Source: Candidatus Nomurabacteria bacterium RIFCSPHIGHO2_01_FULL_37_25 (GTDB lineage: Bacteria > Patescibacteriota > Minisyncoccia > Phycocordibacterales > UBA9973). From it: 64,000 bases of DNA. Made by a program: the position numbers and the translations under genes. The DNA is taken from NCBI GenBank assembly GCA_001786765.1, contig MFTH01000010.1, positions 34,105 to 98,104 on the forward strand, read 5' to 3'. Below are positions 2,651-60,759 of the stretch, in pieces (the first letter of the stretch is position 1; every line of letters starts with the position of its first letter). The notes under the pieces were generated by a model. It searched no databases and was not told where the DNA came from. It saw nothing but the letters and a program-made list of their open reading frames with translations.

Positions 2651-4126
2651 ATGAAAAATGCATATGACGTCGGAGAAATACTAAAATTGATGGGAAAAAT
2701 AAATAAGAAAGAAGAAGAACTTATAATAAAAGCTTATAGGTTTGCGCAGCGCGCGCATGAAGGTCAAAAAAGATTAAGCGGAGAACCTCATTTCACTCAC
2801 CCTTTTGAAACAGCCAAAACTTTAGCTTCACTGGGTATGGACGCGGAAACAATCTCGGCCGGATTAATGCATGATGTTCTGGAAGATACTAAGACAGGAG
2901 AAGAAGAAATGAGAAAAGAATTTGGAGAAAATATAGTTTTTCTAGTAAATGGCGTGACAAAACTTGGAACTTTGAAATATAGAGGACACGAAAGACATGT
3001 GGAAAGTTTGAGGAAATTCTTTGTGGCGATGGCAAATGATCTACGCACAGTTATCATAAAGTTTGCCGACAGACTGCATAATTTAAAAACTTTGGAATTT
3101 TTAAGAGAAGATAAAAGACGTAGGATTGCCATAGAATCAATCGAAGTGTATGCGCCACTGGCTAACCGTCTAGGTATGGGAAAATTTAAAGGCGAACTGG
3201 AAGACGCCGCTTTTCCGTTTGCTTTTCCAGAAGAATATAAACAAACCGAAGAAATAATAAAAGAAAAAAAAGATTTATATGAAAAAAACTTAGACGAAAT
3301 ACAGAAAAAGCTTCGAAAAGAATTGAATAAAAACAAAATCAAAGTGGTGGAAATAAATTATAGAATGAAACATAAGTACAGCTTATGGAAAAAACTCTTA
3401 AAGCGCGAAATGGATATAGAAAAAGTATATGACCTGATCGCTTTGCGGGTGGTAGTAGAAAGCATAGAAGAATGTTATAGAGTGTTAGGAATAATACATT
3501 CCCTTTGGAATCCATTACCCGGCAGGATAAAAGACTACATCGCGGTGCCAAAACACAATGGCTACCGCTCCATTCACACCACTATTTTCACCGGTTCGGG
3601 CGGAATCGCAGAAATTCAAATACGAACAAAAGAAATGCATGCCGAAGCGGCTTATGGTATCGCGGCTCATTTCGCCTACAAAGAACAAGGAAATAAAAAA
3701 GTGGAAAATGATAAATCAAAATTCAAATGGATAGAAGAATTAAAAAATTTGAATTACTCTCCGGATGAACCAAAAAAATTCATTGAGCATTTAAAGATGG
3801 ATTTTTTTAATGATCGCATTTTCGTTTTTACACCCAAGGGGGATGTAATAGATATGCCAGAGGATTCGTGTTCGCTTGATTTTGCTTATTTGATACATTC
3901 GGATATCGGAGAACATACCTTTGGCGCAAAAGTCAACGGCAAAATGGTTCAGCTTTTTACAAAATTAAAAAACGGAGACATTGTGGAAATAATAACTAAA
4001 AAAGATTCCAGACCGTCCAGAAAGTGGTTAGAATTCGTAAAAACTTCTGTCGCTAAAAAACATATAAGATCATATCTGGAAAAAAACACCTTACTTGCTA
4101 GGCTTAAATCTTTCGGTCGTTCTTAA
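2651..4126 (+). CDS. rel: Small bifunctional (p)ppGpp synthetase/hydrolase (RelA/SpoT homolog; HD + synthetase + TGS, no ACT domain)
   Basis: HD motif HDVLEDT, synthetase motifs (YRSIHTTI), TGS-like C-terminus. Confidence 0.88.
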   Translation: MKNAYDVGEILKLMGKINKKEEELIIKAYRFAQRAHEGQKRLSGEPHFTHPFETAKTLASLGMDAETISAGLMHDVLEDTKTGEEEMRKEFGENIVFLVNGVTKLGTLKYRGHERHVESLRKFFVAMANDLRTVIIKFADRLHNLKTLEFLREDKRRRIAIESIEVYAPLANRLGMGKFKGELEDAAFPFAFPEEYKQTEEIIKEKKDLYEKNLDEIQKKLRKELNKNKIKVVEINYRMKHKYSLWKKLLKREMDIEKVYDLIALRVVVESIEECYRVLGIIHSLWNPLPGRIKDYIAVPKHNGYRSIHTTIFTGSGGIAEIQIRTKEMHAEAAYGIAAHFAYKEQGNKKVENDKSKFKWIEELKNLNYSPDEPKKFIEHLKMDFFNDRIFVFTPKGDVIDMPEDSCSLDFAYLIHSDIGEHTFGAKVNGKMVQLFTKLKNGDIVEIITKKDSRPSRKWLEFVKTSVAKKHIRSYLEKNTLLARLKSFGRS

Positions 4127-5142
4127 ACGCTAAAATTAGAAATATTATATAAATCACTATCATCCCCGCCTGCCAATTGGCGGGCAGGTTTTTTAATTTC
4201 TTCTTTTGATCTATCATCGATCGGCGTATCTTCAATTTCTATATCAGATTTGTTTTTATTGATGTAGTTTTGAAGCATTTCCGCTTGCGCCGGCAAGATG
4301 TTTGATTTATTTTCACTGTTTGATTTATTTATCAAACTCAAAATAGTCCGCAGGTCTTCTATGGAAAAATAATCTATCTTGATTTGTCCGCCTAATTCTT
4401 TTCTGTCAATATGCACGCGGGTGCCTAATTTTTCTTGAAATTCTTCTTCGAGTTCAGTTATTTCTGGATCTGGCATAAACTCTTTCTTGCGTACTCGGTC
4501 ATAAGCTATTTTCCTTGCTAGTCTTTCCGCTTCACGCACGGTAATTTTTTTATATACAATTTCTTTAAATAATACTAACTGCTCTTCTCCATGATCGGCT
4601 AACATTAGTAATGGTCGTGTATGACCTTCGGTAATTTTACCTTCAGACAAACCGGCTATTATTTCTTCGGGTAAAGTTAAAATACGCAAAGAGTTAGACA
4701 CATATTCCCTACTCCTGCCCATTTTTTTTGCAATCTCATTATGAGTAAATTTAAATTCATTAGCTAATCGAAAAAAAGCGCGAGCGCGATCAACAGCATT
4801 CAAATCTTCACGTTGCAAGTTTTCAATAATGGCGAGTTCAAGCTTCATAATAGCAGTGTCCCCAGCTCGGATTATAACTGGCACTTGCGAGACTCCAGCC
4901 AAAATAGCCGCGCGCAATCTGCGTTCACCTGCTATGAGCTCATATTCAGTAACTAGTCCACCTCCATCTTTTTCCACTTCCATGCGAGAAACTGTCAACG
5001 GCTGGAGCACTCCGTATTGTTTTATGGAATCAGATAAATCTTGCAGACGCATTTCATCAAAATCCCGTCTTGGTTGATATGGGTTGGGTTTTATTTTATC
5101 GGTGTCAATCCAGAAAATTGAATTTGAATATAAATTAGACAT
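4123..5142 (-). CDS. parB: ParB/Spo0J-like partition protein
   Basis: ParB box LIAGERRLRAA, HTH region, C-terminal extension. Confidence 0.82.
   Translation of the reverse strand: MSNLYSNSIFWIDTDKIKPNPYQPRRDFDEMRLQDLSDSIKQYGVLQPLTVSRMEVEKDGGGLVTEYELIAGERRLRAAILAGVSQVPVIIRAGDTAIMKLELAIIENLQREDLNAVDRARAFFRLANEFKFTHNEIAKKMGRSREYVSNSLRILTLPEEIIAGLSEGKITEGHTRPLLMLADHGEEQLVLFKEIVYKKITVREAERLARKIAYDRVRKKEFMPDPEITELEEEFQEKLGTRVHIDRKELGGQIKIDYFSIEDLRTILSLINKSNSENKSNILPAQAEMLQNYINKNKSDIEIEDTPIDDRSKEEIKKPARQLAGGDDSDLYNISNFSV
4164..4194. terminator. GC hairpin (CCGCCTGCC..GGCGGGCAGG) plus T-run between convergent rel and parB
   Basis: Stem-loop followed by TTTTTT; bidirectional position. Confidence 0.6.
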
Positions 5143-31356: not shown

Positions 31357-31376
31357 ATATTTCTTGAAACTCTTTT

Positions 31377-31943: not shown

Positions 31944-31949
31944 ACAATT

Positions 31950-34418: not shown

Positions 34419-34524
34419 AAATTTATTTCAAAAGTTCATCCGCAGAAACCCCTAACGCTTTTGCTAATCTCATAAAAAAACGGATTCGTTTCATATTTTA
34501 CCCTAGTTTTTGATTCGTTCATAA

Positions 34525-35979: not shown

Positions 35980-36054
35980 TGGTGAGCGTGGATGGAATCG
36001 GACCATCGGCCTCTGTCTTATCAGGACAGCGTTCTACCACTGAACTACACGCTC
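35980..36054 (-). tRNA. tRNA-Ile(GAT) with atypical T-loop (TCCGATT), CCA encoded
   Basis: Reverse complement GAGCGTGTAGTTCAGTGGTAGAACGCTGTCCTGATAAGACAGAGGCCGATGGTCCGATTCCATCCACGCTCACCA; canonical cloverleaf but C at the usually invariant U55. Confidence 0.65.
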
Positions 36055-42515: not shown

Positions 42516-44564
42516 ATGAAAAAAAACCAAATAAAAAGACTCGAGGGTATCATGTCTATTTCCTCAAAAGGCGTTGGATATGTAAAAGTTCCAGAATTGA
42601 AAGAAGATATAGAAATTGATTCAAAATACTTGAATACTGCTATGCATGGAGATACTGTGGAAATCATTTTACATCCTAAAGAAAAAAGTCGCTCCGCTTA
42701 TGCCAAAGGCTACGGCGAGAGAAAACAAACAGCCGAAGTATCAAAAATAATTTCTCGTATTAAAACTTGTTTTGCCGGGGTTTTAGAATCGGAACCCTCT
42801 AAGTTTGGAACAAAAAATAATATTTATTTTTTGAAACCAGACGATACGAAAATGTACACAGATATTTTGATACCTGAAAGAGCGTTGCACGAAGCGAAAG
42901 CGGGGCAAAAAGTTTTTGTGGAAATAGTTTCATGGGAAAATGCAAACAAAGCGCCAGAGGGAAAAGTAATTAAAATTTTAGGTCAACCCGGAGATAATGA
43001 TACAGAAATGCATGCAATCGCCATGGAAAAAGGTTTTGATAGCGAATTTCCAAGAAAAGTGAAAGATGAGGCTAAAAATATCTCCGCCCACAATAAACAC
43101 GCGTCAGACAAAAAAGAAAATGATTATGCGGAACGACGCGATTTTAGAAAAATCTTAACTTTCACTATTGACCCAATAGACGCAAAAGACTTTGATGATG
43201 CAATTTCTTTCCAAGAATTAAAAAATAGCGAATACGAAATAGGTATTCATATCGCTGACGTTTCGCATTATGTAAAAGTCGGTAGCGCTCTTGATGATGA
43301 AGCGCGCCAGCGTGGAACTTCGGTGTATTTAGTAGATAGAACAATACCCATGCTCCCAGAAGAACTATCAAACGATTTATGCAGTTTAGTGCCAAATAAA
43401 GACAGACTCACAATGAGCGCAGTTTTTATAATAGACAAAAATGCCAAAATAAAAAGTGAGTGGTATGGACGCACTGTGATACATTCTCAAAAAAGATTTA
43501 CTTATGAAGAGGCTGGCGAGACAATCAAAAAAGCTAATGCTCCGCTCCATAAAGAATTATCAATCTTAAACAATCTGGCAAAAAAATTAACTTTAGATCG
43601 ATTTGCGCAGGGAGCAATATCTCTAGACCAAGAAGAAGTAAAATTTGTATTAGATCCTAAAGGAGTACCGATAAAAGTGGTGGTGAAAGAGCGTGGTGAT
43701 TCAAATAAGTTAATTGAGGAATTTATGCTTTTAGCTAATAAAAAAGTGGCTGAAGTATTATCTCCAAAATTATTTCAAGAGCGTCCTGATAAAAAAGCGG
43801 AAAAAGAAAATAGCGTATCTCTTTATCGCATACACGATTTACCCAGTAAAGAAAAAATGGCGGATTTGGCTTTTTTCTTACAAAGCTTGGGACACAAAGT
43901 AACTCTCCGAGATGGAATTATCCCCAGTTATGAGATAAATAATCTTCTGAAAAAATTAGCGGGGAAAAATGAAGAAAATACTGTGCAACGAGCAGTAGTG
44001 AGGTCTATGGCTAAAGCAATTTATTCCACTAAAAATATAGGACATTATGGGCTCGCATTTCCTTATTATACTCATTTTACTTCTCCAATTAGAAGATACC
44101 CAGACATTGTGGTGCATAGATTGCTCAATGATTATCTTGCAAAGAAAAAAGTTGGAAAAACCTCGCCCGACTCCCCCGTAAATATATGGCCAAAAGAAAA
44201 ATTGCTTGAATATGAAAAAATTGCCAGAATTTCATCCGAACAAGAAAAGCGCGCTTCTGACGCCGAAAGAATTTCAATAAAATACAAACAGGTTGAATAT
44301 ATGAGCAAACGTCTTGGAGAAAGTTTTGTGGGAGTGATAAGTGGCATAACAGAATGGGGTATTTATGTGGAAGAGATAGAAACCAAATGTGAAGGATTAG
44401 CGCGAGTGCGAGATATGAAAGACGACTTTTACATTTTTAATGAAAAAAAACTTGAATTGACTGGACAAAAAAACAAAAATAAATACCGTTTGGGTGATCG
44501 TGTTAAAATAAAAGTAAAGGGAGTTGATTTAGAAAGAAAAACAATAGACTATGTTTTGATATGA
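42516..44564 (+). CDS. rnr: Ribonuclease R (cold-shock, RNB and S1 domains)
   Basis: RNB catalytic motifs, C-terminal S1; ORF track begins at 42498, the second ATG at 42516 is more likely. Confidence 0.88.
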   Translation: MKKNQIKRLEGIMSISSKGVGYVKVPELKEDIEIDSKYLNTAMHGDTVEIILHPKEKSRSAYAKGYGERKQTAEVSKIISRIKTCFAGVLESEPSKFGTKNNIYFLKPDDTKMYTDILIPERALHEAKAGQKVFVEIVSWENANKAPEGKVIKILGQPGDNDTEMHAIAMEKGFDSEFPRKVKDEAKNISAHNKHASDKKENDYAERRDFRKILTFTIDPIDAKDFDDAISFQELKNSEYEIGIHIADVSHYVKVGSALDDEARQRGTSVYLVDRTIPMLPEELSNDLCSLVPNKDRLTMSAVFIIDKNAKIKSEWYGRTVIHSQKRFTYEEAGETIKKANAPLHKELSILNNLAKKLTLDRFAQGAISLDQEEVKFVLDPKGVPIKVVVKERGDSNKLIEEFMLLANKKVAEVLSPKLFQERPDKKAEKENSVSLYRIHDLPSKEKMADLAFFLQSLGHKVTLRDGIIPSYEINNLLKKLAGKNEENTVQRAVVRSMAKAIYSTKNIGHYGLAFPYYTHFTSPIRRYPDIVVHRLLNDYLAKKKVGKTSPDSPVNIWPKEKLLEYEKIARISSEQEKRASDAERISIKYKQVEYMSKRLGESFVGVISGITEWGIYVEEIETKCEGLARVRDMKDDFYIFNEKKLELTGQKNKNKYRLGDRVKIKVKGVDLERKTIDYVLI

Positions 44565-46504
44565 AACAAAATCTAAATCAAAAAACTTTACAGATAATTA
44601 AATTATTTTTTTGGACGCTATTTCCTATCATCTTAGGTGTTTTTCTTGTTTCACTTGTAATAATCATTTTTAATAAAATTAATTATGCGAAAATACAGGA
44701 AACAGGAAACAACACAGCAATAGCCATACAATCTCTAACTCCAGAAGAAATAAAAGAAGAAAAACCCAGATATTTCTATTTAAATAATGCTAGTGAAGAG
44801 CCTAAGGTCGGAGCCATTGCGTACTTGGTCGGAGACTTGAATACAGGCGAAGTAATACTGTCAAAAAATCAGAATCAGAAATTTCCAATCGCTTCTGTTT
44901 CTAAACTTATGACTGCATTGGTTACAAGAGAGATAACAAATCAAAATGATGTTGCGCAAGTAAGCAAAAAAGCTTTAGCCACAAAGGGCACAAATGGCAA
45001 TCTCCGGGTAGGAGAAAAAATAAAAACTACAGATTTATTATATCCCCTTCTTTTAGAATCAAGCAACGATGCCGCAGAAGTGCTCGCAGAACATTTTGGA
45101 CGAGACATTTTTATAAAAAAAATGAACCAACAATCTGAAATATTAAAAATGTCAGAAACATTCTATAAAGACCCGAGCGGGCTGTCAGAGAAAAATCAAT
45201 CAACCGTTTCAGATATATTTAAGTTAGTTGGATACTTGAATCAGCAAAAGAAAGATTTATTAGAGATAACAACAAAGCGAAGTTATTCAAATAAAAAACA
45301 CAGCTGGTCAAATATCAACCAATTCATACAAAAAGACGGATATTTTGGCGGCAAAAGCGGATATACAGACCCCGCTAAACAAACTGTCGTTTCTCTTTTC
45401 AATCTACCCCTTGGCCAAACGGGCTATCGCCCTATCGCTATCACTTTATTGCAAAGCGCTGATCGACAGAGGGACGTGGAAACTATTTTAAAATATTTAA
45501 ATAAAAATATATATTATGGAGGATCAGCCGATGCGAATACAAACTGGGTGGAAGAAAGGGTTGGTATGCCAAATATTAAAGACTTGGATTTCGTAACACT
45601 AGCTTTCGGGGGTGATATAATGCTTGATCGCGGAGTAAAAAATTCAGTCAGAAAAAATTTCAACAATGATTACTCTAAACTTTTTGAAAAACCAGATTTG
45701 GTTAACTTATTAAAAAAAGTTGACATTATCTTTGCTAATCTGGAAGGCGCAGCCTCAGATAAAGGCGCGGATTTAAAAAATTTATATTCTTTCAGGATGG
45801 ATCCGACGGTTGTCCCAGCTTTAAAAAATGCAGGTATGAGTATCTTGTCAGTAGCTAATAATCATATCGGGGACTTCGGTCGTATTGCTTTTATTGACAC
45901 ACTTGGGCTCTTAAAAGAAAATGAAATACTTTACACCGGAGGAGGAATAGATAAAACAGAAGCCGAAAAGCCTGTGATTATTGAAAAATACGGAATAAAA
46001 ATTGGATTTCTTGGTTTCTCAGACAAAGGACCGGACTACATGATAGCGGATAAAGAAAAAGCGGGCATACTTCTTGCAAATGATCCAAACTTTGATGAAA
46101 TAATAAAAAATGCTAGCGAACAAGTTGACTACCTGGTTGTCTCATTTCACTTTGGCGAAGAATATCAAACAAAACACAATGAAAGACAGAAATATCTGGC
46201 TCATAAAGCCGTGGACAATGGCGCAAAAATAATAATAGGACACCACCCGCATGTTATACAAGACACAGAAATTTATAAAAATAGTTTCATCATTTATTCA
46301 CTCGGAAATTTTATTTTTGATCAAACATTCAGCGCTGAAACCATGGAAGGTATGCTCCTTAATATTAAATTATGGAGAGACAGAAATATGACAGTTAGAA
46401 AAGACATACTAAAATTAAATAAAACTTTCCAACCGGATAAAATCATCAAAGGCAAAGAGGAAAAGATAAAATTTGAAGATACAAAAATACAAGAAAGATT
46501 ATGA
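44561..46504 (+). CDS. Fusion of D-alanyl-D-alanine carboxypeptidase (S11) with CapA/PgsA-type metallophosphatase domain
   Basis: SxxK motif (ASVSKLMTALV) in the N-half; CapA-like GGDIMLDRGV, HHPH motifs in the C-half. Confidence 0.7.
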   Translation: MKQNLNQKTLQIIKLFFWTLFPIILGVFLVSLVIIIFNKINYAKIQETGNNTAIAIQSLTPEEIKEEKPRYFYLNNASEEPKVGAIAYLVGDLNTGEVILSKNQNQKFPIASVSKLMTALVTREITNQNDVAQVSKKALATKGTNGNLRVGEKIKTTDLLYPLLLESSNDAAEVLAEHFGRDIFIKKMNQQSEILKMSETFYKDPSGLSEKNQSTVSDIFKLVGYLNQQKKDLLEITTKRSYSNKKHSWSNINQFIQKDGYFGGKSGYTDPAKQTVVSLFNLPLGQTGYRPIAITLLQSADRQRDVETILKYLNKNIYYGGSADANTNWVEERVGMPNIKDLDFVTLAFGGDIMLDRGVKNSVRKNFNNDYSKLFEKPDLVNLLKKVDIIFANLEGAASDKGADLKNLYSFRMDPTVVPALKNAGMSILSVANNHIGDFGRIAFIDTLGLLKENEILYTGGGIDKTEAEKPVIIEKYGIKIGFLGFSDKGPDYMIADKEKAGILLANDPNFDEIIKNASEQVDYLVVSFHFGEEYQTKHNERQKYLAHKAVDNGAKIIIGHHPHVIQDTEIYKNSFIIYSLGNFIFDQTFSAETMEGMLLNIKLWRDRNMTVRKDILKLNKTFQPDKIIKGKEEKIKFEDTKIQERL

Positions 46505-46572: not shown

Positions 46573-47181
46573 TTAGACATGGTATCCGGCTTTTGTAAGC
46601 AATTCTTTTAATAAGTGTATCGGCATACCAACGATACTTTCTTCGTTACCCTCAATTTTTTTAACATAGGGTCTTAAAATGGGATGCTGAACACCAAAAC
46701 CACCAGCTCGACCAAGCGGATCTCCAATTTTTATAAAATTTTCAATTACAGACTCTGAAAATGGATTCCAAAAAACTTGCGCCTTAGCAACACCCTCATA
46801 ATATACTCCTGTGGCAGTGTTAAAGATAACAATGGCTGTTACCCCTTCCGGAGCCACGCCTGCGCTATATTCTCTCAGAAATTTACGCGCTTCTTCTTCC
46901 GACTCCGGTTTTTCCCTCAGTTTTCCATTACACACTGCAACAGCATCAGAAGTAATAAGAAGGGCTGGCTCGTTAATTTTTGATATAAGAACATTCGCCT
47001 TAGCCCTCGCTAGCAAAAGCGGTCTTTTATATGGATCATTCTCTATGATTTCTTTTTCATCTAACTCAGGAATTAAAACTTCAAAAACATAACCCGCTTT
47101 TTCCATGAGATCCTTTCTATATTTAGAAGATGAGCCAAGAATTAATTTCATAAAATTATTTCGCAATTTGTGTAGCTTCAT
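46573..47181 (-). CDS. maf: Maf-like nucleoside triphosphate pyrophosphatase
   Basis: Maf-family homology (LILGSSSKYRKDLM...). Confidence 0.82.
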   Translation of the reverse strand: MKLHKLRNNFMKLILGSSSKYRKDLMEKAGYVFEVLIPELDEKEIIENDPYKRPLLLARAKANVLISKINEPALLITSDAVAVCNGKLREKPESEEEARKFLREYSAGVAPEGVTAIVIFNTATGVYYEGVAKAQVFWNPFSESVIENFIKIGDPLGRAGGFGVQHPILRPYVKKIEGNEESIVGMPIHLLKELLTKAGYHV

Positions 47182-49339
47182 TAAATTTTACAGAGAGAAG
47201 TTTAGAGGCTCCATTTGCGCCTATTGTGACTCCATAAAGCACTCCAGCGCGAGACATCGTCTCGCGGTTGTGAGTAACGACAATAAGCTGTGAATGTTTA
47301 GAGAGTTTCTCTAACATATCACCGTATTTGCGCGAATTTGCTTCGTCAAGCGCGGCATCGGTTTCATCCAATACCAAAAACGGTGGCGGATTTACTTGAG
47401 ACATAGCGAAGAGAAGGGCTATAGATGTGAGCGACCTCTCTCCGCCTGAGAGCGCATGAAGCTCTTTGACTTTTTTGTGAGGAAGCTTCACATTTATTTC
47501 TATTCCCTGTTCGAGCACGGATTCTTCTTCATCAATAAAGTCTTCCTCTAATTCTATATCTTCATAATTTTTTCCCGACGCTTGCGGTCGGGACCCCGAC
47601 TCCTCTGGGCGTCGGGACTTTTTATTTTCAACAACAATAGCAAGAGAACCTGTACCCCCATCGAACATTAGAGAAAAGAATTCTTGAAATTCCACATTTA
47701 TCTTTTTGATACCCTCTTTAAACTCTACATCAATTTTCTCTTTCAATTCTGCTATAAGCTTTTGTAATGATTCAACGCTTTTTGTTAAATCTTCTAATTC
47801 TTTTGCTAAAAATTGGTCCCGTTCTGAGACTTCTTTAAATTCTTTCAAAACCTCTGCTCCACTACCAACACCGGTATCTTCTAATTTTATTTTTAGGCGT
47901 TCAATTTTTTTCTTTAGTTCTTCTTGAGTAATTTCTTCTGCATTACCCTTTTTAATTTCATAATCTTTATAAGACAAAACAAGAGCTCCAATGAGCGCGA
48001 CGCCTTCTTTGATCTCATTATGAAAAGCTTCTGTCCGATTTTTTAAATTTCCCTCTTTGATAATTACCAACTCTAAAGCCGAAGACAGCTCCTGATGCTT
48101 AACTTTGAATTTAAATTTTTCTTTTTCAAGATCACGCAAAGATTCTATTTCTTTGTTTATCTCTTGCTTTAATGCTTCTATTTGCGCATTTAATTCTTTT
48201 TCTTTATTTTCTATATCTCGCGCCTCCTCTAGAAGACTAGACTGCGAAACTTTTAATTCTATTAGTTCTTTCTCGTTATTCTCTTTATTTTCTATTTGTT
48301 CTTTATTTATTTCTCCTAATTCTTTTCCGCATGTTGGACATCTGCCTAAGAGACCTCCGAGTTTTACTCTATTATTTTTCGCTTCTATCATTCCTTCTAT
48401 TCTGCCGAGCTTGCGTTCTATCTCATTCTTTAGCACTCTAATTCCACTCATTTTTTTCTCAACAATTTTTAATTCTTCAATTTTCTTATTCCCCTTAATA
48501 GAATTGCCGACTTCAATATCATGAATCTTGGGAGTTATCTGTTTTAGTTCATCGTTAATTTTATTTCTTTCGACTAACAAGCCAGATAATTCTAAATCTA
48601 AATAAATACTTTCTTTCTTGAAATATTCTCTATAGAAAGTCGAGAGCTCAATCTGCATTTCTTTCACTTTCTCAAGCTTCTCTACTTGTTTCTTCAAAAA
48701 ATTAAAATGCGGGGCGTTTTCTCTTCGTAACATTACTACTTCTTTCATATTATTAGATGTTCGTTCCAACTTGCGCTCGGATTCTTTTATTTTATATTGA
48801 TATATCTTAAGCCCGAGCGCATCTTCCACCATTTCTTTTCTATCTTTTGGACTCGCATTTAAAATCCTATCCGCTTCGCCTTGCGAAATAATATGATGCC
48901 CAGAGGAGCCGATGTTTACAGAAGCTAAAAGATTATGAACATCTTTTAACCTTACTTCTTCTCCATTTAGAATATATTTATTTAATCCGTCAGAATGCAC
49001 CTCGCGAGAAATAATGATGGTGTCATAATTTAGATTTATATTTTCCCCCGTATCATTTTCAAGTTTAAAAATTTTATCGGAATTATTGAAATATATCGCG
49101 ACATTTGCTCTGGAGCCTTTAGACAAGCTTTTTGACCCTTTGAAAATAAGATCAAGTCCCGACTTTCCACGCATTGACTTCATTGATTGTTCACCTAAGA
49201 CATAACGAAGAGCCTCCACTACATTAGATTTTCCAGAACCATTGGGACCGACGATGCAAACAATAGGACTCTCAAATTCCAAAACAGTTTTTTGAGCAAA
49301 AGATTTAAAACCATTTATTTCAAGAGTTTTGAGCCTCAT
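47156..49339 (-). CDS. smc: Short SMC-type ATPase (727 aa) with CxxC (CPTCG) at the coiled-coil apex in place of a canonical hinge; contains an in-frame GC-rich element insertion
   Basis: SMC N-head (FKSF, GPNGSGKSN), C-head LSGGERSLTSIALLFA...LDETDAALD...LYGVT; CPTCG near residue 335 of 727; inserted SRRPEESGSRPQASGK encoded at 47574-47618. Confidence 0.75.
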   Translation of the reverse strand: MRLKTLEINGFKSFAQKTVLEFESPIVCIVGPNGSGKSNVVEALRYVLGEQSMKSMRGKSGLDLIFKGSKSLSKGSRANVAIYFNNSDKIFKLENDTGENINLNYDTIIISREVHSDGLNKYILNGEEVRLKDVHNLLASVNIGSSGHHIISQGEADRILNASPKDRKEMVEDALGLKIYQYKIKESERKLERTSNNMKEVVMLRRENAPHFNFLKKQVEKLEKVKEMQIELSTFYREYFKKESIYLDLELSGLLVERNKINDELKQITPKIHDIEVGNSIKGNKKIEELKIVEKKMSGIRVLKNEIERKLGRIEGMIEAKNNRVKLGGLLGRCPTCGKELGEINKEQIENKENNEKELIELKVSQSSLLEEARDIENKEKELNAQIEALKQEINKEIESLRDLEKEKFKFKVKHQELSSALELVIIKEGNLKNRTEAFHNEIKEGVALIGALVLSYKDYEIKKGNAEEITQEELKKKIERLKIKLEDTGVGSGAEVLKEFKEVSERDQFLAKELEDLTKSVESLQKLIAELKEKIDVEFKEGIKKINVEFQEFFSLMFDGGTGSLAIVVENKKSRRPEESGSRPQASGKNYEDIELEEDFIDEEESVLEQGIEINVKLPHKKVKELHALSGGERSLTSIALLFAMSQVNPPPFLVLDETDAALDEANSRKYGDMLEKLSKHSQLIVVTHNRETMSRAGVLYGVTIGANGASKLLSVKFNEATQIAK
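47574..47618. repeat. GC-rich double-hairpin palindromic element (family P2), in-frame inside smc
   Basis: CCCGACgcttgcgGTCGGG and CCCCGACtcctctgggcGTCGGG. Confidence 0.7.
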
Positions 49340-49354
49340 ATTCTGTATTTTCTA

Positions 49355-50050
49355 TTAATCCATCCAATTTTTGACTTTTAATGCCATTTCAGCGGCTTTT
49401 TGTTCCGCTTCCTGTTTTGATTTACCACGACCTTCAGCTATCAAATTAGACCCAAAAAAAATACCGACTGTAAAATGTTTATCATGGTCTGGACCTGATT
49501 CACTGAGAACTCTGTACGCTGGCGTAAGGTTTATAAATTCCTGCGCTTTTTCCTGCACTAGAGATTTTGCATCACGCCAAAGTTTCTTTGCCACTATTTC
49601 TTCTGTTTTAGGTAAAAGAGATTCGCGTACAAATTTATCTACTGCCTTTATTCCTTGATCCAGATATAAAGCCCCGATATACGCTTCATATGTATTTGCT
49701 AAAATATATTGCCTTGCTTTGCCATTGTCCTTTTTCTCACCCTTGGATAAAAGCAGATAATCATTCATGCCCATAACTGTCGCAACCTCAGAAATAATGA
49801 CAGCGTTGACCAAAGCTGAACGCAAAGCGGTCAATTCCCCTTCTGTGCAATTTGGATATTTTTTGTAAAGAAAATCAGTTACGATAAGTTCCAGCACAGC
49901 ATCACCCAAGAATTCTAAACGCTCATTGTGTGACAGCTTGGTTGATGCATTCTCATTTATGTAAGAACGATGTATAAAAGCCTGCTCTAACAAACTCTTA
50001 TTTTTAAAAATTATCTTAGTTTTTTTCTCAAAATTTGAAAACTGAATCAT
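49355..50050 (-). CDS. rnc: Ribonuclease III
   Basis: ERLEFLGDAVLEL signature plus dsRBD. Confidence 0.92.
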   Translation of the reverse strand: MIQFSNFEKKTKIIFKNKSLLEQAFIHRSYINENASTKLSHNERLEFLGDAVLELIVTDFLYKKYPNCTEGELTALRSALVNAVIISEVATVMGMNDYLLLSKGEKKDNGKARQYILANTYEAYIGALYLDQGIKAVDKFVRESLLPKTEEIVAKKLWRDAKSLVQEKAQEFINLTPAYRVLSESGPDHDKHFTVGIFFGSNLIAEGRGKSKQEAEQKAAEMALKVKNWMD

Positions 50051-50061
50051 ATTTTTTATTT

Positions 50062-51072
50062 TTATTTTTTAAGCTTATCAACTTTTTTTTCATTCCCCTT
50101 TAATATATGAACTGCTTTTGCAATAAGCGGAATAATATCATTATAAATACGAAGCTCCGGCACTTCTGTCATCTCAAACCACCTAGCGCCATCAAGTCCA
50201 CCAGACTTTTCTAGCTCCAATTCTTTATACTCGCTATATGCCAAAAAGTAAACAACCTTCTTCAGACTTTTACCACGCTCTGGATGTGTCGCCACATATT
50301 CATTCCTTCCAAGTTCTTCTTTTATTACAATATCCAACCCAATTTCCTTTTTAATCGTTTTTATCGTGGCTTCTTTTATATCTTGATATTCTTCAGCTTT
50401 GCCTTTAGAAAGAGTCCAGTAGCCAAAGACGTCGTGCACAAATGCAAATAAAATAGTATTATCGGTTCCTGATTCTGAACTATTATATGAACCAGTAGGC
50501 TTTTTCGCATATACTAATGCGCCCACTAGATTCTCAACTGGCAATTGAGTAACATCTATTACTTCTTTCTGCTTTTTAGATTCAACATCATTTATATTTT
50601 TTTGATATGTTTTTTTATGTCCTTTGTCGGGCTCGCCTATTTCTTTGTAAACTGCGCCGAGCACACCATTTACAAATTTACCAGAATTTTCCCCGCCGAA
50701 AGTTTTAGCTAATTCTATAGCTTCATTGATTGCCACTTTCGGAGGCACCTGGGACCTATCACCAAACAAAAGTTCAGTTAACCCAATTCGTAGGATATTT
50801 CTATCAACAATAGAGATTTTATCTACCGGCCAGTCTGGCGCAGCCTTTTCCATAATCTCATCAATTATCACTCGCTTTTTTAAAATTTTATCGATTAAAG
50901 AAAATACAAAGGGATCTTCCTCAATCCCAGGAGCAAATTCTTTTAAATTTCTATTTAATGCCGTCTTTATATAGTCGTCAACAAAACTATCCCCTTTTTT
51001 TTCTATAGGTAAGAAATCCCACTCAAAAAGCGTTTGAAGCACTATTGATCTTGAAAGGTGCCTATTTGCCAT
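50062..51072 (-). CDS. nusB: NusB-like N-terminal domain fused to C-terminal NUDIX hydrolase
   Basis: NusB motifs (VDRNILRIGLTELLF, KFVNGVLGAV), then NUDIX box GKAEEYQDIKEATIKTIKKEIGL. Confidence 0.75.
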   Translation of the reverse strand: MANRHLSRSIVLQTLFEWDFLPIEKKGDSFVDDYIKTALNRNLKEFAPGIEEDPFVFSLIDKILKKRVIIDEIMEKAAPDWPVDKISIVDRNILRIGLTELLFGDRSQVPPKVAINEAIELAKTFGGENSGKFVNGVLGAVYKEIGEPDKGHKKTYQKNINDVESKKQKEVIDVTQLPVENLVGALVYAKKPTGSYNSSESGTDNTILFAFVHDVFGYWTLSKGKAEEYQDIKEATIKTIKKEIGLDIVIKEELGRNEYVATHPERGKSLKKVVYFLAYSEYKELELEKSGGLDGARWFEMTEVPELRIYNDIIPLIAKAVHILKGNEKKVDKLKK

Positions 51073-51459: not shown

Positions 51460-52080
51460 TTAAAATAAATGAAAATTTTTCTTTAACTTTTCTTCTCTTA
51501 AGAAGTTTTCTACAGTCAAAACCTCCACATATTTCCCCACTCCAAAGAAATCAGCAATAAAGATTATTTCGTCTTCACAAGGATAAGGATAAATCCAAGC
51601 GGATTTTTGAAATTGGAAAAAATTTAATTCTTTCAAATGATACCGTAATGCTTCTCTACCTTTTGTAAATCTCATCGGAATATCAAACATAACTAATCTC
51701 CATTTGCTATCCCATCTTTTTGGCTTGTTAATCTTCATCAGCTCAATATCGAAAGCTCTGAGTCTCGTATTTCCTTTTTTAGTAATTTTTACTATAGTTT
51801 TTCCGTTCTTGTCAGCGACATATTCTATGAGTTTTTGACGTCTAATATTATCAATAGCGCTTTGTATTTGTTTTTTAGAATACTTTTTAGATCCTTCAAA
51901 CATCTTAAAACATTGCACTGCATTACCCATAACTCCTGCGCCCAACACCAGCATAGGCATTAAAGATACAGCCAACACACAAAGAGCAACTGTGGAAATT
52001 TTTGCTTCAGTTGTATCAGACTCTAAAAAATCTTTTAATCTCTTTGAATACCCTGCTTTATTATTTTTTCCCATATACAT
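51460..52080 (-). CDS. PaaX-family-like regulator (N-terminal TM segment, wHTH, PaaX_C-like W..W.L..FDIP...LR..L...F.....S.W..P) bracketed by inverted half-palindromes
   Basis: RWDSKWRLVMFDIPMRFTKGREALRYHLKELNFFQFQKSAWIYP matches the PaaX C-terminal pattern; IRs at 51429-51447 and 52081-52099. Confidence 0.45.
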   Translation of the reverse strand: MYMGKNNKAGYSKRLKDFLESDTTEAKISTVALCVLAVSLMPMLVLGAGVMGNAVQCFKMFEGSKKYSKKQIQSAIDNIRRQKLIEYVADKNGKTIVKITKKGNTRLRAFDIELMKINKPKRWDSKWRLVMFDIPMRFTKGREALRYHLKELNFFQFQKSAWIYPYPCEDEIIFIADFFGVGKYVEVLTVENFLREEKLKKNFHLF

Positions 52081-55952: not shown

Positions 55953-56672
55953 ATGGAAACCAAGAAAAGACGGCGGAATCCCTGGGGCCCAGTTTTAAAA
56001 AATCCAAAGGCAACACAGGACACTGCAGTTGGGACTGCAGTTCCACCGCCACAGAAGAAACAAAAGATGGTGGAATGGCTGGTGGGGGGGATATTTATTT
56101 TTCTGGTCCTGGTATGCGGATTCTACTTTGAGTTCGCGTACCGAGTCCTGGCTGTAGTTGGGCTCGGGATCACCATGGCTGTACTCATGGTACAGTCTAT
56201 CTTCTCCGAGAAAGAGGTGAGTTTTTGGACCACCTTGGGAAAGGTTGTTGGAAACAACAACTGGATTTACTGGTGGATCTTCTTGTCTGGGATGGCTTGT
56301 CTCCTGATAGGATTTTTCTCAAACAACATTCCGAGAAAAATCTATACGGTGCTTGTCATAATAGACAATCCTGTAAGTCCCGGTAATTGGAGTAAGGCCG
56401 CAGAGAGTCTTACTCTAGAGGACCCTTTTAAAAACAACGACGACAACCCCTTCCTCGCAACAAACGAAGGAACTCAAGGCAGTTCCCTCTTCGCAGGAGA
56501 GGAGGCGAAATGGGGTTTCGCCGGTCTTCAATTCCTCTTGCTGGCTCTGCCAGCAAGGTTCGTCTCTTACTGGGACGAAATGAAGAGGAAGGCGAAAAAA
56601 AAGGAGAAGGGCCAGAGCTGGATTAGCTGGTTCTTCAGCCACGTCCTCTTTGAATTAATCTGGCCTGGGTAG
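55953..56672 (+). CDS. Hypothetical polytopic membrane protein (GC-rich island)
   Basis: GC-rich ORF with SD AAGGGAGAAGGAA before the ATG; several TM helices. Confidence 0.5.
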   Translation: METKKRRRNPWGPVLKNPKATQDTAVGTAVPPPQKKQKMVEWLVGGIFIFLVLVCGFYFEFAYRVLAVVGLGITMAVLMVQSIFSEKEVSFWTTLGKVVGNNNWIYWWIFLSGMACLLIGFFSNNIPRKIYTVLVIIDNPVSPGNWSKAAESLTLEDPFKNNDDNPFLATNEGTQGSSLFAGEEAKWGFAGLQFLLLALPARFVSYWDEMKRKAKKKEKGQSWISWFFSHVLFELIWPG

Positions 56673-56693
56673 GTAATAGAGGAGACCAAAAAT

Positions 56694-57206
56694 ATGCCGA
56701 GAATCTTCATAATGTTGGTGGTGTTGGTGCTTTCAATTTACTCTTTTGGATGCGGGGGGGAGAATAAGTATGAAAAGACCATAAGTTCTGCTGAAAAGCA
56801 GGACAGGGATAGCCCCCCTGCAAATTATGAAGAGGCGCAAAAACGCTTCAACCAAGTAGCCAAGTATCTTGACTACTTGGAGAAGCATCCGGAGAGTTCT
56901 TCCCCAGAACTCACAGCAAGGGCAAAGGCCCTGCTGGATAGCCGTAAAGCGGCGGCTATGGCTAAAGGATGGAATGTCGCCGCCGGAGCGCTAGAGAAGG
57001 TAGTGCAAAAGGCGAAGGAAGTGGCGAAGGAAGTGCTGGGCACCATTGGCGTCACAGACCTACCCAGCGCTGCCAAAAAGGTCGAGGAGGCAAGAGATTG
57101 GGTCCTTAGGGACCCGGAAAGAGAAGAACAGTTCTCCTGCAAGGATATCGACGGTAACCCCGTCGACGTCACGAAGGAAGGTTTTGCCCATCTCTGCGTA
57201 AGGTAG
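56694..57206 (+). CDS. Hypothetical lipoprotein (GC-rich island)
   Basis: Signal peptide with lipobox-like ...YSFGC, helical body. Confidence 0.5.
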   Translation: MPRIFIMLVVLVLSIYSFGCGGENKYEKTISSAEKQDRDSPPANYEEAQKRFNQVAKYLDYLEKHPESSSPELTARAKALLDSRKAAAMAKGWNVAAGALEKVVQKAKEVAKEVLGTIGVTDLPSAAKKVEEARDWVLRDPEREEQFSCKDIDGNPVDVTKEGFAHLCVR

Positions 57207-57264
57207 AAAGGAGGAAAAAACTTACGCAGGTGGGGAGGGTGCGCGACCCTATAACGCGCAAATT

Positions 57265-57298
57265 GGGCGGACTCAGAAATGAGTACCGCCCTTTTTTT
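57265..57298 (+). terminator. Rho-independent terminator
   Basis: GGGCGGactcagaaatgagtaCCGCCC plus TTTTTTT. Confidence 0.75.
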
Positions 57299-57350
57299 AT
57301 TTTAATATTATAAAATAAGGATAAAATAGCTTTTTTGTCAAGATTAAACC

Positions 57351-57556
57351 TTGACTTTTTCATTTTATTGTGCTATACTATAAAGGTAATCAGGTCTTTG
57401 AAAATATAATATGTTCTGAGTCATTCTTGAGCAGTTTGCCTATCAAGTAGCTAAAGAGATTTGGCTCTTTGCTTGGCAAACGAGCTCAAGGAATGGAAAC
57501 TTCTCTGGTGAAAGCCAGAGTACAAATGCGTCATCTTGACGCGAAAGGAGTCCACA
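57351..57556 (+). promoter_or_regulatory. Promoter (TTGACT-17-TATACT) plus ~170-nt structured leader, copy 2
   Basis: See copy 1; the ORF-track ORF 57469-57702 lies inside the leader and is probably not coding. Confidence 0.65.
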
Positions 57557-58654
57557 ATGTGGACATTGATTATTTTATTAGCGGCCAGTTACTGGGCATC
57601 CACTGGGATACCCGGGTGGCCGTTGTCAACATGGCAGACGTCCCTGGTGGCGGGAGCCCTATATGGGCTCTATCGACTGGCGTGCTGGATGCAGTGGATT
57701 GATGGTGGCCATCATACCACCACACCAGTTAGCACCGCCGCCGGACACAGTGGAGGAAGTGGTGGTATGTGGGGAGGGATACCAAAGCTAGGACTTTGGT
57801 ACGTTCTCACAACCGCCCTAATGATGATAGGTACATACATAGTCAACGTGCAAAACGTTGACATGTTTATGTATTTCATAACATTAGGGGGACGGTCGTG
57901 GATTTATCCTTTATCCACAACGGATGCTATCCTCTGGACGTCTACCCTGGCTCTCATGTCAGCGGTCGCCTGGCTAGCAGTGGAGGGGAGATGGCGACCG
58001 GCTGGATGGATATTCGGGATAACCTTTATAACTCTCCTTGTTTTTAGGGAGTTCGGTCCGTTCTTCGAGGCGATCCGGCCGATCCCGAGCTCCGGTCCTG
58101 TCACGCCGGGCATCGGCGAAAGTCAAGAGAGGGCGGACCTGAACGCCGCCCTAGTCAAGCGAGGAGCGCTCCCCGTAGCGGGGGAGGTGGTGGCCAAGTT
58201 TGGGTTCGGGGAGGTAGACCCAAAGGAAGGTTTCCTCCTCGGCCTGGTTTCCCGAGGGTGGGTGTGGTGGATGGGCGCACCCACCTACGACCCCAAGAAG
58301 GGGGCAGTCCTGGGGAGATTGTATCAGTTTTGGGAATGGGCGGCTGGAGAAAGCCCACTCCCATCTCGCGCGCCGGCGGTAGTGTTTTCCCCCACCCCTG
58401 CGCCGGCGGGACCGCTGAGAAGCTGTTCCGTCCCCTGCGAGATGTGGGTGGATTGGGAGGAGGACATCAAAACGGGTGGGCGAGACGTTTTGGTCCTCTT
58501 CCACGGAAAGGAGGAATGGTTCCGCCTTTCCGGAGGGAATGAAAAGGATATCCCCAGGGAGGTTTTCTCCCCCGGCAAGGCAAAGTTTGCTTTGCCGGAC
58601 GACGGCGACGACGCGTCGCCCATAATGGTAAAAATTTTCGCGGCGAAAAAATAA
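57557..58654 (+). CDS. Hypothetical polytopic membrane protein with Pro/Gly-rich C-terminal region (GC-rich island)
   Basis: ATG at 57557 preceded by AAAGGAG; ~8 TM helices; ORF-track start 57536 is a TTG upstream. Confidence 0.5.
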   Translation: MWTLIILLAASYWASTGIPGWPLSTWQTSLVAGALYGLYRLACWMQWIDGGHHTTTPVSTAAGHSGGSGGMWGGIPKLGLWYVLTTALMMIGTYIVNVQNVDMFMYFITLGGRSWIYPLSTTDAILWTSTLALMSAVAWLAVEGRWRPAGWIFGITFITLLVFREFGPFFEAIRPIPSSGPVTPGIGESQERADLNAALVKRGALPVAGEVVAKFGFGEVDPKEGFLLGLVSRGWVWWMGAPTYDPKKGAVLGRLYQFWEWAAGESPLPSRAPAVVFSPTPAPAGPLRSCSVPCEMWVDWEEDIKTGGRDVLVLFHGKEEWFRLSGGNEKDIPREVFSPGKAKFALPDDGDDASPIMVKIFAAKK

Positions 58655-58783: not shown

Positions 58784-59107
58784 TTATGGATAATCAGGTA
58801 AATCTACTATCCCTTGTTCAGGATCTATCCCTTCTATGTTTGGGAAGGTGCTCAATATAACTCCAAGAATAGTCCAGACACCCATCATGATAGTCAATCC
58901 GACAACACCCCAAAGCATATGGCTCTTCCCGGTTGTCTTTTTCTCGTCATTACTCTGATTGTTAATGAATTGAAACATACCGAAAAGAAAATACGCCAAC
59001 GCTAAAGCGAAGAGCAACAGAATAAGCGGGTTTATAATTTCTCTATTAACATTCGCTATAAAACTATTCACGCTCGCATAAGCTATCTTTGTTTCAAATA
59101 AATCCAT
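58784..59107 (-). CDS. TrbC/VirB2-like pilin-family small membrane protein (paralog 1, no signal peptide)
   Basis: Two TM helices separated by a short charged loop; shares its core with the four downstream paralogs. Confidence 0.5.
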   Translation of the reverse strand: MDLFETKIAYASVNSFIANVNREIINPLILLLFALALAYFLFGMFQFINNQSNDEKKTTGKSHMLWGVVGLTIMMGVWTILGVILSTFPNIEGIDPEQGIVDLPDYP

Positions 59108-59118
59108 TGATTCTAAAA

Positions 59119-59511
59119 CTAGAAAGGAGTGGTTGGAAAAGTGATAGTTTGAGGATTTGTATCAATTCCAAAAGTGTTTGTTAGAATCTTTACGAGTCCC
59201 CATACGGTAACAATAACAGCCAAGCCAATTATGCCAAATATTATTCTGTCTCGTCCTTTCTTTTTTGCTTCTGCATCATCTCCAATAACATAAGAAATTA
59301 CTCCCCATACAAAGTAAATGACCCCTAAGATAATTATAATAGGAACAATTTGAGTAAAAAGTTGAGCTATCTTACATAAGATAGCTTCAATTGTGCCTGT
59401 ACCCACACTAGCACAATTAGTAGAAGTACCCCCCGTCGTCACCTGCGCCAATGCCATAACAGGCGCTAGACCTAAAACAAAACCCGACAAAACAATTAAT
59501 TTCTTTTTCAT
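59119..59511 (-). CDS. TrbC/VirB2-like pilin-family protein (paralog 2, with signal peptide)
   Basis: Signal peptide, then IIILGVIYFVWGVISYVIGDDAEAKKKGRDRIIFGIIGLAVIVTVWGLV core. Confidence 0.55.
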   Translation of the reverse strand: MKKKLIVLSGFVLGLAPVMALAQVTTGGTSTNCASVGTGTIEAILCKIAQLFTQIVPIIIILGVIYFVWGVISYVIGDDAEAKKKGRDRIIFGIIGLAVIVTVWGLVKILTNTFGIDTNPQTITFPTTPF

Positions 59512-59622
59512 CCCGTTTAGAAATTATGATATCCGTACATTACCTTTAGGTATATAAAGAAACACAATTCTTACTTTTATAATTTCTCCCGTTTTCTAAA
59601 TTTCTAACGGGATTCAAAACGA
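59512..59622 (-). promoter_or_regulatory. 5' leader inverted repeat (CCCGTTAGAAATT...AATTTCTAAACGGG-ATG) of pilin paralog 2
   Basis: 13/14-bp arms enclosing ~80 nt; 3' arm abuts the ATG. Confidence 0.45.
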
Positions 59623-59726
59623 CTTTGATAATAATTAATAATACTTAATAAAGAACTACCATGCTATTGTACCACAAACAGTATCAAAAAAGAAAGCAAG
59701 CCCCGTCTGAATAAAGACGCTGAAAG

Positions 59727-60302
59727 TTATGGGGGTGGTGTCTTAACTTGTGGAATAAAACTAGTGTTAATCCCAAAGGTAGTACCTAGTATTTCAACCA
59801 ACCCCCAAACGGAAACCATCACCGTCAAAGCAATCAACCCCCAAAGCATAAATTGCTTGCCTTTTTGCTTTTTCGCCTCTTCGTCGCTTTTGATAACATA
59901 CTGCACCACACCCCAGACAAACATCACCATCGCTAAAGCGAAAATAAGAGGAATGATAGCGTTGTTAATAATGGTGGTGATATAACACACAAGGTCTTGA
60001 AATCTCGGATAGGGACCAAGAGTTTGGCAAGTGTCTATGGGCTCAAAGACGGGCCCAGTTGCATTTGTAAGCCCGAAAGTTTCAGCAATAATGCTTACAA
60101 GTCCCCATACAGACACAATAACAGTCAAGCCAATGATGCCATATATTATTCTATCTCTCCCTTTCTTTTTTGCTTCATCACCGCCCCCTATAACATACTG
60201 CACCACGCCCCAGACAAAATAGACCACTCCTAAAGCAACCAAAACAGGAATGATTGAACTAAGAATATTATACGCCTCAAATATTAAATCCTCTATGGTC
60301 AT
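59727..60302 (-). CDS. Tandem-duplicated TrbC/VirB2-like pilin-family protein (two complete core modules in one ORF)
   Basis: Two copies of ...LGVVYFVWGVVQYVIGGGDEAKKKGRDRIIYGIIGLTVIVSVWGLV... / ...LAMVMFVWGVVQYVIKSDEEAKKQKGKQFMLWGLIALTVMVSVWGLV... Confidence 0.55.
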   Translation of the reverse strand: MTIEDLIFEAYNILSSIIPVLVALGVVYFVWGVVQYVIGGGDEAKKKGRDRIIYGIIGLTVIVSVWGLVSIIAETFGLTNATGPVFEPIDTCQTLGPYPRFQDLVCYITTIINNAIIPLIFALAMVMFVWGVVQYVIKSDEEAKKQKGKQFMLWGLIALTVMVSVWGLVEILGTTFGINTSFIPQVKTPPP

Positions 60303-60320
60303 GATTTTAATTCTTAAATT

Positions 60321-60731
60321 TTACGGTCCAAGCTCGGTAACGGTAGCTGATATGAGTTCTGCGATAGCCCACGACCCTAAGAGTATCGCCGCGCCGATCA
60401 AAGTATATAAGAGAGCGTTTTTAGCTTTAGTTAATTTTTCTGAATTGCCCATCGCTGATACAAAAAGAAAACCGCAATAAATGACAGCCAGAGCGACAAT
60501 GGGAATGCCTATTTTTAGCACACCTTCTAAAAGAACCTTGATAAATTCCTGAATGGTATTTGTGCTTATTGGGTTGCAAATTTTATCTTTACAAAGGTCA
60601 GAAGGAGTAGTACCCTGAATAGGTTCAGGAGAAGTAGTCTCTGCAAAAGAAAGAGCTGGCGCCGTAATCAAAAAAGCCATTAAAATTATTCGAAATAAAT
60701 TTTTAGTCAGATTTTTCTTAAAAAAATTCAT
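60321..60731 (-). CDS. TrbC/VirB2-like pilin-family protein (paralog 4; likely start MNFFKKNL)
   Basis: Signal peptide, core IPIVALAVIYCGFLFVSAMGNSEKLTKAKNALLYTLIGAAILLGSWAIAELI. Confidence 0.5.
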   Translation of the reverse strand: MNFFKKNLTKNLFRIILMAFLITAPALSFAETTSPEPIQGTTPSDLCKDKICNPISTNTIQEFIKVLLEGVLKIGIPIVALAVIYCGFLFVSAMGNSEKLTKAKNALLYTLIGAAILLGSWAIAELISATVTELGP

Positions 60732-60759
60732 ATTTAGATTACTTATATTATACATCATT

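Follow-up and report, generated by a model that had tools for sequence, protein, structure and literature searches.

In reviews the hinge is the defining feature of SMC (structural maintenance of chromosomes) proteins, as the zinc hook is that of Rad50 (PMC10586767). Proposed roles of the hinge are a DNA gate and, lately, a selective gate for obstacle bypass (PMC12647877). Within the superfamily, zinc hooks are known from Rad50/SbcC, from the archaeal ASRP proteins (ClsN/coalescin, Sph1/2), which are chromosome-organising ATPases with the hook in place of a hinge, and from many LmuB proteins, which are derived from Rad50, measure about 650 amino acids (aa) and have coiled coils of ~20 nm (PMC10586767, PMC9389158); none of these is an Smc orthologue. 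A hook has been put on Smc by engineering: Bacillus subtilis grows normally on an Smc whose hinge was swapped for the zinc hook of Pyrococcus furiosus Rad50, Smc arms are functional only at lengths within periodic windows ~91–99 aa apart, and the shortest functional engineered arms measured ~253–267 aa (Burmann et al. 2017, PMC5344682). The arm-length survey of that study required an alignment of the hinge, so hinge-less sequences would have been discarded from it, and our literature search brought up no bacterial Smc that naturally lacks a hinge or bears a hook. Here we describe an smc gene of this kind in a stretch of 64,000 nucleotides (nt), hereafter the window, from contig MFTH01000010.1 (positions 34,105 to 98,104) of Candidatus Nomurabacteria bacterium RIFCSPHIGHO2_01_FULL_37_25. 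It encodes 727 aa, and we consider it likely that this protein is a natural miniature of the chromosomal Smc, the condensin orthologue of the organism, hinge-less and dimerising at its apex through a zinc hook.

A preliminary description made from the sequence had recognised SMC-type heads in the 727-aa open reading frame (ORF) from the motifs FKSF, LDETDAALD and LYGVT; all three are present, and the protein scores 496.9 bits against the NCBIfam model SMC_prok_B (TIGR02168). In the N-terminal half of the head we find GFKSF (aa 10–14), the Walker A motif GPNGSGKS (31–38), R57 and the Q-loop glutamine Q153, and in the C-terminal half the LSGGE signature (630–634), the Walker B and D-loop stretch LVLDETDAALD (655–665, with DE659), H690 and LYGVT (701–705). 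Every ATPase motif is thus intact, including the catalytic Glu E659 in the Walker B sequence LVLDE, the D-loop and the H-loop. The Pfam SMC_N match spans aa 3–712 (7.7e–59), and among solved structures in the PDB 3zgx_A, the Smc head of B. subtilis, comes first (2e–75, aa 2–206); solved Smc heads of B. subtilis, Geobacillus and Thermotoga match at 2e–75 to 8e–60, against only 1.5e–12 for Rad50 heads. Models of other families score far under their cutoffs: at most 73 bits for the Rad50 equivalogs (cutoffs 700–1087), 42.7 for sbcc (478.5), 48.8 for the ASRP model NF045487 (300) and 40.8 for RecN TIGR00634 (407.85), the last of which excludes a RecN identity outright. The gene string is rpmF-nusB/Nudix-rnc-smc; in 77 of 80 related loci the first recognised gene upstream of smc is rnc, and rnc-smc is the classical gene order known from B. 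subtilis. We assign the protein as an Smc orthologue because of its Smc-type heads, its intact motifs and its position behind rnc. A metagenome-assembled genome of Candidatus Nomurabacteria (RIFCSPHIGHO2_01_FULL_37) encodes an identical protein (100%), deposited as hypothetical protein A2641_03365. The reading frame is intact, and the same protein is carried by 23 contigs from independent samples.

What distinguishes this Smc is the absence of its middle. No match to SMC_hinge (PF06470) was found in the 727-aa protein with Pfam at E ≤ 0.01, nor in 10 diverse members of the short-SMC family described below even at E ≤ 1. Scanned alone, the N-terminal arm (aa 171–333) aligns with SMC_prok_B positions 162–309 and the C-terminal arm (aa 339–560) with positions 848–1055, and equivalents of positions ~310–847 (~540 positions), which are the distal arm halves and the hinge, are absent. 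The protein, ~40% shorter than canonical Smc, has kept complete Smc heads, neck and joint; what it has lost is the entire hinge and, in each arm, the distal half. The AlphaFold2 (AF2) model places helices at 178–273 and 285–329, then a loop (330–345), then helices at 346–450, 452–459, 472–489 and 494–559. Its mean predicted local distance difference test (pLDDT) value is 69, the arms being confident and the heads poor (~40); since the heads are weak owing to shallow alignments, we used only secondary structure and arm topology from AF2 models. A fold search with the model gave 5XEI (Pyrococcus Smc head with coiled coil and joint) as best match. The preliminary description had seen no recognisable hinge and had left room for a degenerate one around the CxxC motif. 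We can rule the latter out: PF06470 does not match, the 16-residue AF2 loop is too small for the fold, and no hinge fold surrounds the CxxC.

The arms are correspondingly short. Their strands measure ~165 aa (N) and ~220 aa (C), vs. 344 aa in canonical Smc, and the paired arm of ~150 residues would extend ~22 nm, about half the canonical length (an estimate at ~0.15 nm per residue). Between the head boundary and its first Cys the N strand has 163 aa, about two periods under 344 and equal to a minor natural mode of 163 aa in the published survey (PMC5344682), an agreement that is only suggestive, the C strand being ~220 aa with the joint included. In having Smc heads and shortened arms joined by a Rad50-type hook, the protein resembles the engineered Smc(Zh) and mini-Smc constructs; it differs in that Smc(Zh) is artificial and carries the P. 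furiosus hook, and in that the natural arms are shorter than the engineered ones by about one super-helical period (an approximate figure).

Where the hinge would be, at the turn of the AF2 coiled coil, lies GRCPTCGKELG (aa 332–342). The preliminary description had placed this motif at the middle of the coil and likened it to the zinc hook of Rad50/SbcC, and database comparison agrees, with 1L8D and PF04423 as the best apex matches. In the PDB a 78-aa apex piece matches best to 1L8D, the hook of P. furiosus Rad50 (E = 0.0038); in this alignment GRCPTCGKELGE stands opposite GKCPVCGRELTD. When 32 apex fragments are combined into a profile, 1L8D again comes first (2e–5) and the rod-form hook 6ZFF next (1.2e–4), and Pfam Rad50_zn_hook (PF04423) is the commonest match of the individual fragments (24 of 32, best E = 9.2e–6). 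In Rad50/SbcC and the 727-aa Smc alike, an antiparallel coiled coil has CPxCG at its apex, there are two Cys per chain, and the flanks are similar, G-[KR]-C-P-x-C-G-[KR]-E-L. The differences are the Smc-type heads and the lack of an adjacent Mre11/SbcD gene, and we would expect chromosome folding here over DNA-end processing.

The motif is under strong constraint. C334, P335, C337 and G338 are invariant in 120 of 120 homologues (72–100% identity), the flanks varying, and each of these sequences has exactly one mid-protein CxxC. In 40 species-level orthologues the first Cys is encoded by TGT 29 times and by TGC 11 times, the second 20 times by each, and all four codons are used for both Pro and Gly; because the residues are invariant yet their synonymous codons turn over, conservation of CPxCG is far above chance. 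The concern that CxxC might not be conserved in orthologues is met by its strict retention in those of the same apex type (see below). Exactly two Cys occur within ±40 aa of the apex in all 40 orthologues, and in 22 of them these are the only Cys of the protein; His is absent within ±40 aa of the CxxC in 15. A tetrahedral zinc site cannot be filled by two thiolates alone; a second chain would be needed, by the same logic as in the Rad50 hook. The motif and its setting suggest that the protein binds zinc and dimerises through the hook.

On these features the following mechanism can be proposed. The two strands of each arm being joined by the short CPxCG loop, with only two apex Cys offered per chain, two chains would share one Zn2+ through four thiolates in the manner of the Rad50/SbcC zinc hook, and this zinc bridge would make a constitutive apex dimer of a short-armed (~22 nm) condensin. 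The Smc heads would come together and part with ATP, in a cycle that the short rigid arms would transmit, as proposed for Smc-ScpAB. The complex may then act as Smc-ScpAB does, loading at ParB/parS and going on to DNA entrapment and extrusion; the loop-extruding function and the partners are inferred. In relatives with a Cys-free apex the hairpin presumably dimerises as a helical bundle.

These relatives form a large family. We searched 1.84 billion cluster representatives for homologues, and the best 150 matches, with 42–69% identity to the 727-aa protein, are all 524–797 aa long (all but three 679–797), so that at least 150 clusters (50% identity) have the same hinge-less short architecture. 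Taxon labels, where named, are Nomurabacteria, Vogelbacteria, Paceibacterota, Minisyncoccia and Patescibacteria. CxxC is found in only eight of these best 150 matches, at mid-protein in seven (CIYCA, CRTCK, CRYCG, CPVCG, CGYCG, CAACG and CAMCN) and in a 524-aa fragment (P0122, with CPLCG); the remaining best matches have no apex CxxC and average about one Cys per whole protein. We therefore distinguish two apex types, A (hook) and B (hairpin), in the latter of which an insert of ~55 residues replaces the ~16-residue loop. The type-B insert is modelled by AF2 as two short helices (337–356 and 360–377 in P0121) between the arm helices, without beta structure; Pfam gives no hinge signal for it, and comparison with solved structures gives only weak matches to designed helical bundles (E ≥ 0.01). 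Among the 80 GTDB species representatives closest to the 727-aa protein, which were our comparison set, 40 are type A (699–782 aa, all but one below 725), 38 are type B (739–775 aa) and two could not be parsed. Conservation across the family covers the heads, the neck (aa ~165–240 and ~471–560) and the motif LGRIEG (aa 311–316), which stands just before the apex in both types; the distal arm is variable. So is the acidic insertion of the C-terminal head, which is hypervariable across the family, has very low pLDDT in AF2 and is probably disordered. To our reading of the literature the family itself, a large set of Paceibacteria hinge-less SMCs of ~700–780 aa with two alternative apex modules, is new. 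Some members stand under other names: locus L061 (JAMPXW010000001.1), titled Burkholderiales, and many third-party annotation (TPA) loci such as L010, L012 and L014, titled 'uncultured Candidatus Saccharibacteria', carry a Nomurabacteria-type short smc (63–76% identity) in the same synteny, and their record titles look mistaken.

The two apex types are interleaved across the family. A first neighbour-joining tree of 50%-identity representatives scattered the CxxC sequences, and in trees built with the apex excluded, monophyly of type A had 0 of 100 bootstrap support, which dismisses a single origin of the Nomurabacteria hook type as far as distance trees can tell; parsimony required 10–16 changes of apex type in every one of 60 bootstrap trees. 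The difference between the types is confined to aa ~300–375: identity within types exceeds that between types by 0.00–0.03 in the heads, with a peak of 0.30–0.32 at aa 316–345. With the apex left aside, 19 of 79 sequences have their closest relative in the opposite type, and such pairs can be close: L007 (A) and L038 (B) at 86.7%, L015 (A) and L031 (B) at 87.2%, L029 (A) and L044 (B) at 88.7%. In pairwise alignments identity drops right after LGRIEGMIE (~aa 320) and returns at ~aa 375–395, and the DNA level agrees. L007 and L038 are reciprocal best matches for rnc (92%) and for NusB-Nudix (88%, next best 79%), and by their neighbouring genes L029 (A) and L043 (A) group closely with L044 (B) as a trio; because the rnc and NusB-Nudix neighbours agree, we take the opposite-type pairs to be sister species. 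The apex thus behaves like an interchangeable module. Recombination appears the more plausible route of exchange, preferred over repeated re-invention because each module is homologous within its type. A fuller interpretation, that the tip of the Paceibacteria Smc is freely exchangeable and that hook and hairpin, swapped by recombination between sister species, are functionally equivalent, we offer as tentative, putting its chances at a little under even; on this view the 'hinge is dispensable' experiment would have been repeated in nature time and again. The choice between Cys and Cys-free modules may track zinc availability, like that between C+ and C– ribosomal protein paralogues, or alternatively may result from conflict with elements directed against the apex. 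As to the zinc-economy idea, ribosomal proteins L31 (39914–40132, –) and L32 (51095–51319, –) are both encoded in the window in Cys-containing zinc-ribbon forms.

Several points weigh against the proposal of a zinc-bridged Smc. The SMC_prok_B score is below the curated equivalog cutoff of 567.35 bits, because the ~540 middle positions of the profile are absent. The window's own apex fragment reaches 14.7 bits on PF04423, under the cutoff of 24.3, and the likeness to the Rad50 hook is that of a short motif, for which homology and convergence cannot be told apart. The AF2 model is of a monomer, with apex pLDDT below 50. As the Cys-free hairpin variant shows, the family can function without zinc. 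A kleisin-dependent mechanism is assumed: neither ScpA nor ScpB is found in the window, in the 10 kb flanking it on each side, or, in the 80 related genomes, up to 10 kb from smc. All of the trees, finally, are distance-based only.

Some of these points would suit a CxxC that does not bridge chains, but is a local turn-stabilising site, a redox or disulfide site or a site for another partner, with dimers held by arm–arm and head–head contacts only. The sister type is Cys-free yet evidently functional, the AF2 apex has low confidence, and the window's fragment misses the PF04423 cutoff. We nonetheless think this unlikely. Two thiolates fall short of a tetrahedral zinc site within one chain, and the ±40-aa surroundings supply no further Cys in any of the 40 orthologues and no His in 15; the motif sits exactly at the coiled-coil turn in AF2, and the conservation of Pro and Gly alongside both Cys fits hook geometry. 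To our knowledge every CPxCG at a coiled-coil turn in the SMC superfamily is an intermolecular hook. A different explanation takes the hook at face value and would make the protein a Rad50/SbcC-type ATPase of double-strand-break repair, working with a nuclease, and not a condensin. The hook motif, the short arms, the missing hinge and the weak matches to Rad50 and SbcC models would all be expected of such a protein, but the scores (at most 73 bits for Rad50 models vs. 497 for SMC_prok_B; 1.5e–12 vs. 2e–75 in PDB) and the gene context largely refute it: the locus is the classical rnc-smc locus, and its neighbours are rnc with maf or a penicillin-binding protein (PBP), never Mre11/SbcD. We regard it as very improbable.

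Equally improbable is membership in a defence system, as Lamassu LmuB or MADS mad3, to which PADLOC does give full-length matches (201 bits for mad3, 102 for LmuB); both scores are far under the 497 bits for Smc. LmuB is similar in being ~650 aa long with short coils and often a CPxCG hook, but it is an effector-adjacent defence protein that typically has a Walker B E-to-Q change (PMC10586767), and none of this applies to the 727-aa Smc, in which DE659 keeps the catalytic Glu. There are no LmuA/LmuC or other mad genes adjacent to smc, which instead belongs to a housekeeping operon (rpmF-nusB-rnc-smc) that 77 of the 80 related species have kept. Such conservation is not a trait of defence islands, and LmuB/mad3 membership is largely refuted by scores and context. 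The ASRP proteins, for their part, are a separate archaea-specific family, not Smc orthologues, which coexist with canonical Smc or replace it. One might lastly suspect that this smc is functionless, be it truncated, decaying or an artefact of assembly, the protein being ~40% shorter than canonical Smc and under the curated cutoff. Conservation refutes this, and we give it practically no credence: the frame is intact, the 23 contigs come from independent samples, the architecture recurs in at least 150 clusters, and the motifs are conserved with synonymous turnover.

For the preferred interpretation, a miniature Smc, the partners matter. ParB is the usual loader of Smc and is encoded in the window by a gene with complete domain content (Table 1), which, like the rnc-smc order, is a likeness to B. 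subtilis; that this ParB serves the 727-aa Smc is inferred. The parS consensus has one match in the window, with three mismatches, no better than chance. The preliminary description had remarked that no scpA or scpB lies nearby. That is true of the window and its flanks: phmmer with PDB-validated B. subtilis seeds (E ≤ 10) found nothing in the window and 83 loci (1.56 Mb), Pfam gives no ScpA or ScpB match in 10 kb past either window end, and a motif regular expression also came up empty. The remark is uninformative all the same, as scpA and scpB are normally unlinked to smc, and the search excludes linkage to smc and not presence elsewhere in the genome. The strongly conserved neck looks compatible with a kleisin, which is no proof of one, and the mention of ScpA/B that we found in the literature on the candidate phyla radiation refers to genes of the host. 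The closest described system is Smc-ScpAB of B. subtilis, with which the protein shares head fold, ATPase motifs, R57, neck, joint and an antiparallel intramolecular coiled coil; it differs in being a hinge-less 727-aa protein that lacks positions ~310–847, in its CPxCG loop as apex (a two-helix hairpin in sister species), in the acidic insertion of the C-terminal head, and in that ScpA and ScpB were not located in the DNA searched.

Around smc the genes are those of an ordinary operon (Table 1; GC content of the window ~0.35). The overlap of smc with maf that had been reported is an artefact, the longest ORF having been used for maf: in gene predictions maf opens with the second ATG (47151), and Pfam matches Maf from residue 12 onwards. 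Neither the overlap nor the missing scpAB carries any weight, because the one is due to ORF calling and the other to normal non-linkage. Maf is downstream of smc in only six of 80 related loci, and the commonest downstream neighbour in related genomes is the Peptidase_S11-PGA_cap gene. Taken across the related loci, the neighbours of smc are rnc, maf, the PBP-PGA_cap protein and RNase R, and never an Mre11/SbcD gene. Upstream of rpmF-nusB-rnc-smc lies a gene (51460–52080, –) for a 206-aa PaaX_M (Cas2-like) protein with an N-terminal hydrophobic segment.

Table 1. The short smc gene, its parts, and neighbouring or functionally related genes, in window positions
Feature	Position	Strand	Residues	Remarks
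smc	47156..49339	–	727 aa	Hinge-less short-armed Smc with CPxCG apex
N-terminal half of ATPase head	48830..49339	–	aa 1–170	Motifs read from sequence; 3zgx_A match
N-terminal arm strand	48353..48829	–	aa 171–329	
Apex loop between arm helices	48305..48352	–	aa 330–345 (16 residues)	From AF2 secondary structure
CPTCG motif	48326..48340	–	aa 334–338	Within GRCPTCGKELG
Putative exchangeable apex cassette	48206..48382	–	aa ~320–378	Differs between hook and hairpin sister orthologues
C-terminal arm strand	47663..48304	–	aa 346–559	Breaks at 460–471 and 490–493 (joint region)
C-terminal half of head	47156..47662	–	aa 560–727	Motifs read from sequence; PDB match
Acidic insertion	47513..47626	–	aa 572–609 (38 aa)	In C-terminal head
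rnc	49355..50050	–		RNase III; 15 nt upstream of smc
NusB fused to Nudix hydrolase	50062..51072	–		Directly upstream of rnc-smc; fusion conserved in related loci
maf	46573..47151	–	192 aa	Starts 4 nt after smc stop
Peptidase_S11 + PGA_cap fusion	44561..46504	+		D-Ala-D-Ala carboxypeptidase with CapA-like domain; convergent with smc/maf
parB	4123..5142	–		ParB_N + HTH_ParB + ParB_C

Elsewhere in the window we noted further genes. Two belong to the cell wall and are unusual fusions: one encodes a helix-turn-helix (HTH) domain fused to an EPSP_synthase-fold enzyme (7199–8716, +; 505 aa), and the other (12335–14743, –; 802 aa) contains the complete D-Ala-D-Ala ligase unit twice. A HicA-type toxin gene with a small upstream partner ORF is found at 10353–10792 (–). 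An island of low GC content (~0.30) at 28371–35676 (–), probably of a mobile or defence kind, adjoins a tRNA gene (35983–36054) and encodes RhuM+Fic, an S49 peptidase, DUF3800, an 822-aa ORF without Pfam match and Fic_N+Fic. GC content is high (0.45–0.48) at 56–60 kb, for which Rfam, finding no rRNA or other RNA family there, rejects rRNA as the cause; three ORFs at 55953–58654 (+; 239, 170 and 365 aa) have no Pfam match on record. Five tandem small membrane ORFs (58784–61170, –), all matching PF18895 (T4SS_pilin), are followed by a gene for a solute-binding protein (61218–62516), and an IS200-like Y1 transposase gene stands near the window end (63243–63869, +).

A large natural lineage thus apparently runs its chromosomal Smc without a hinge and with arms of half the usual length. 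If this is true, the indispensable parts of the machine would be the heads, the neck, the joint and a rigid arm of permitted length, and nature would confirm what only engineering in B. subtilis had shown (PMC5344682). The family offers a minimal SMC of ~710 aa for structural and single-molecule work. The polymorphism of hook and hairpin in sister species is a natural experiment on apex function, and poses an evolutionary question of its own.

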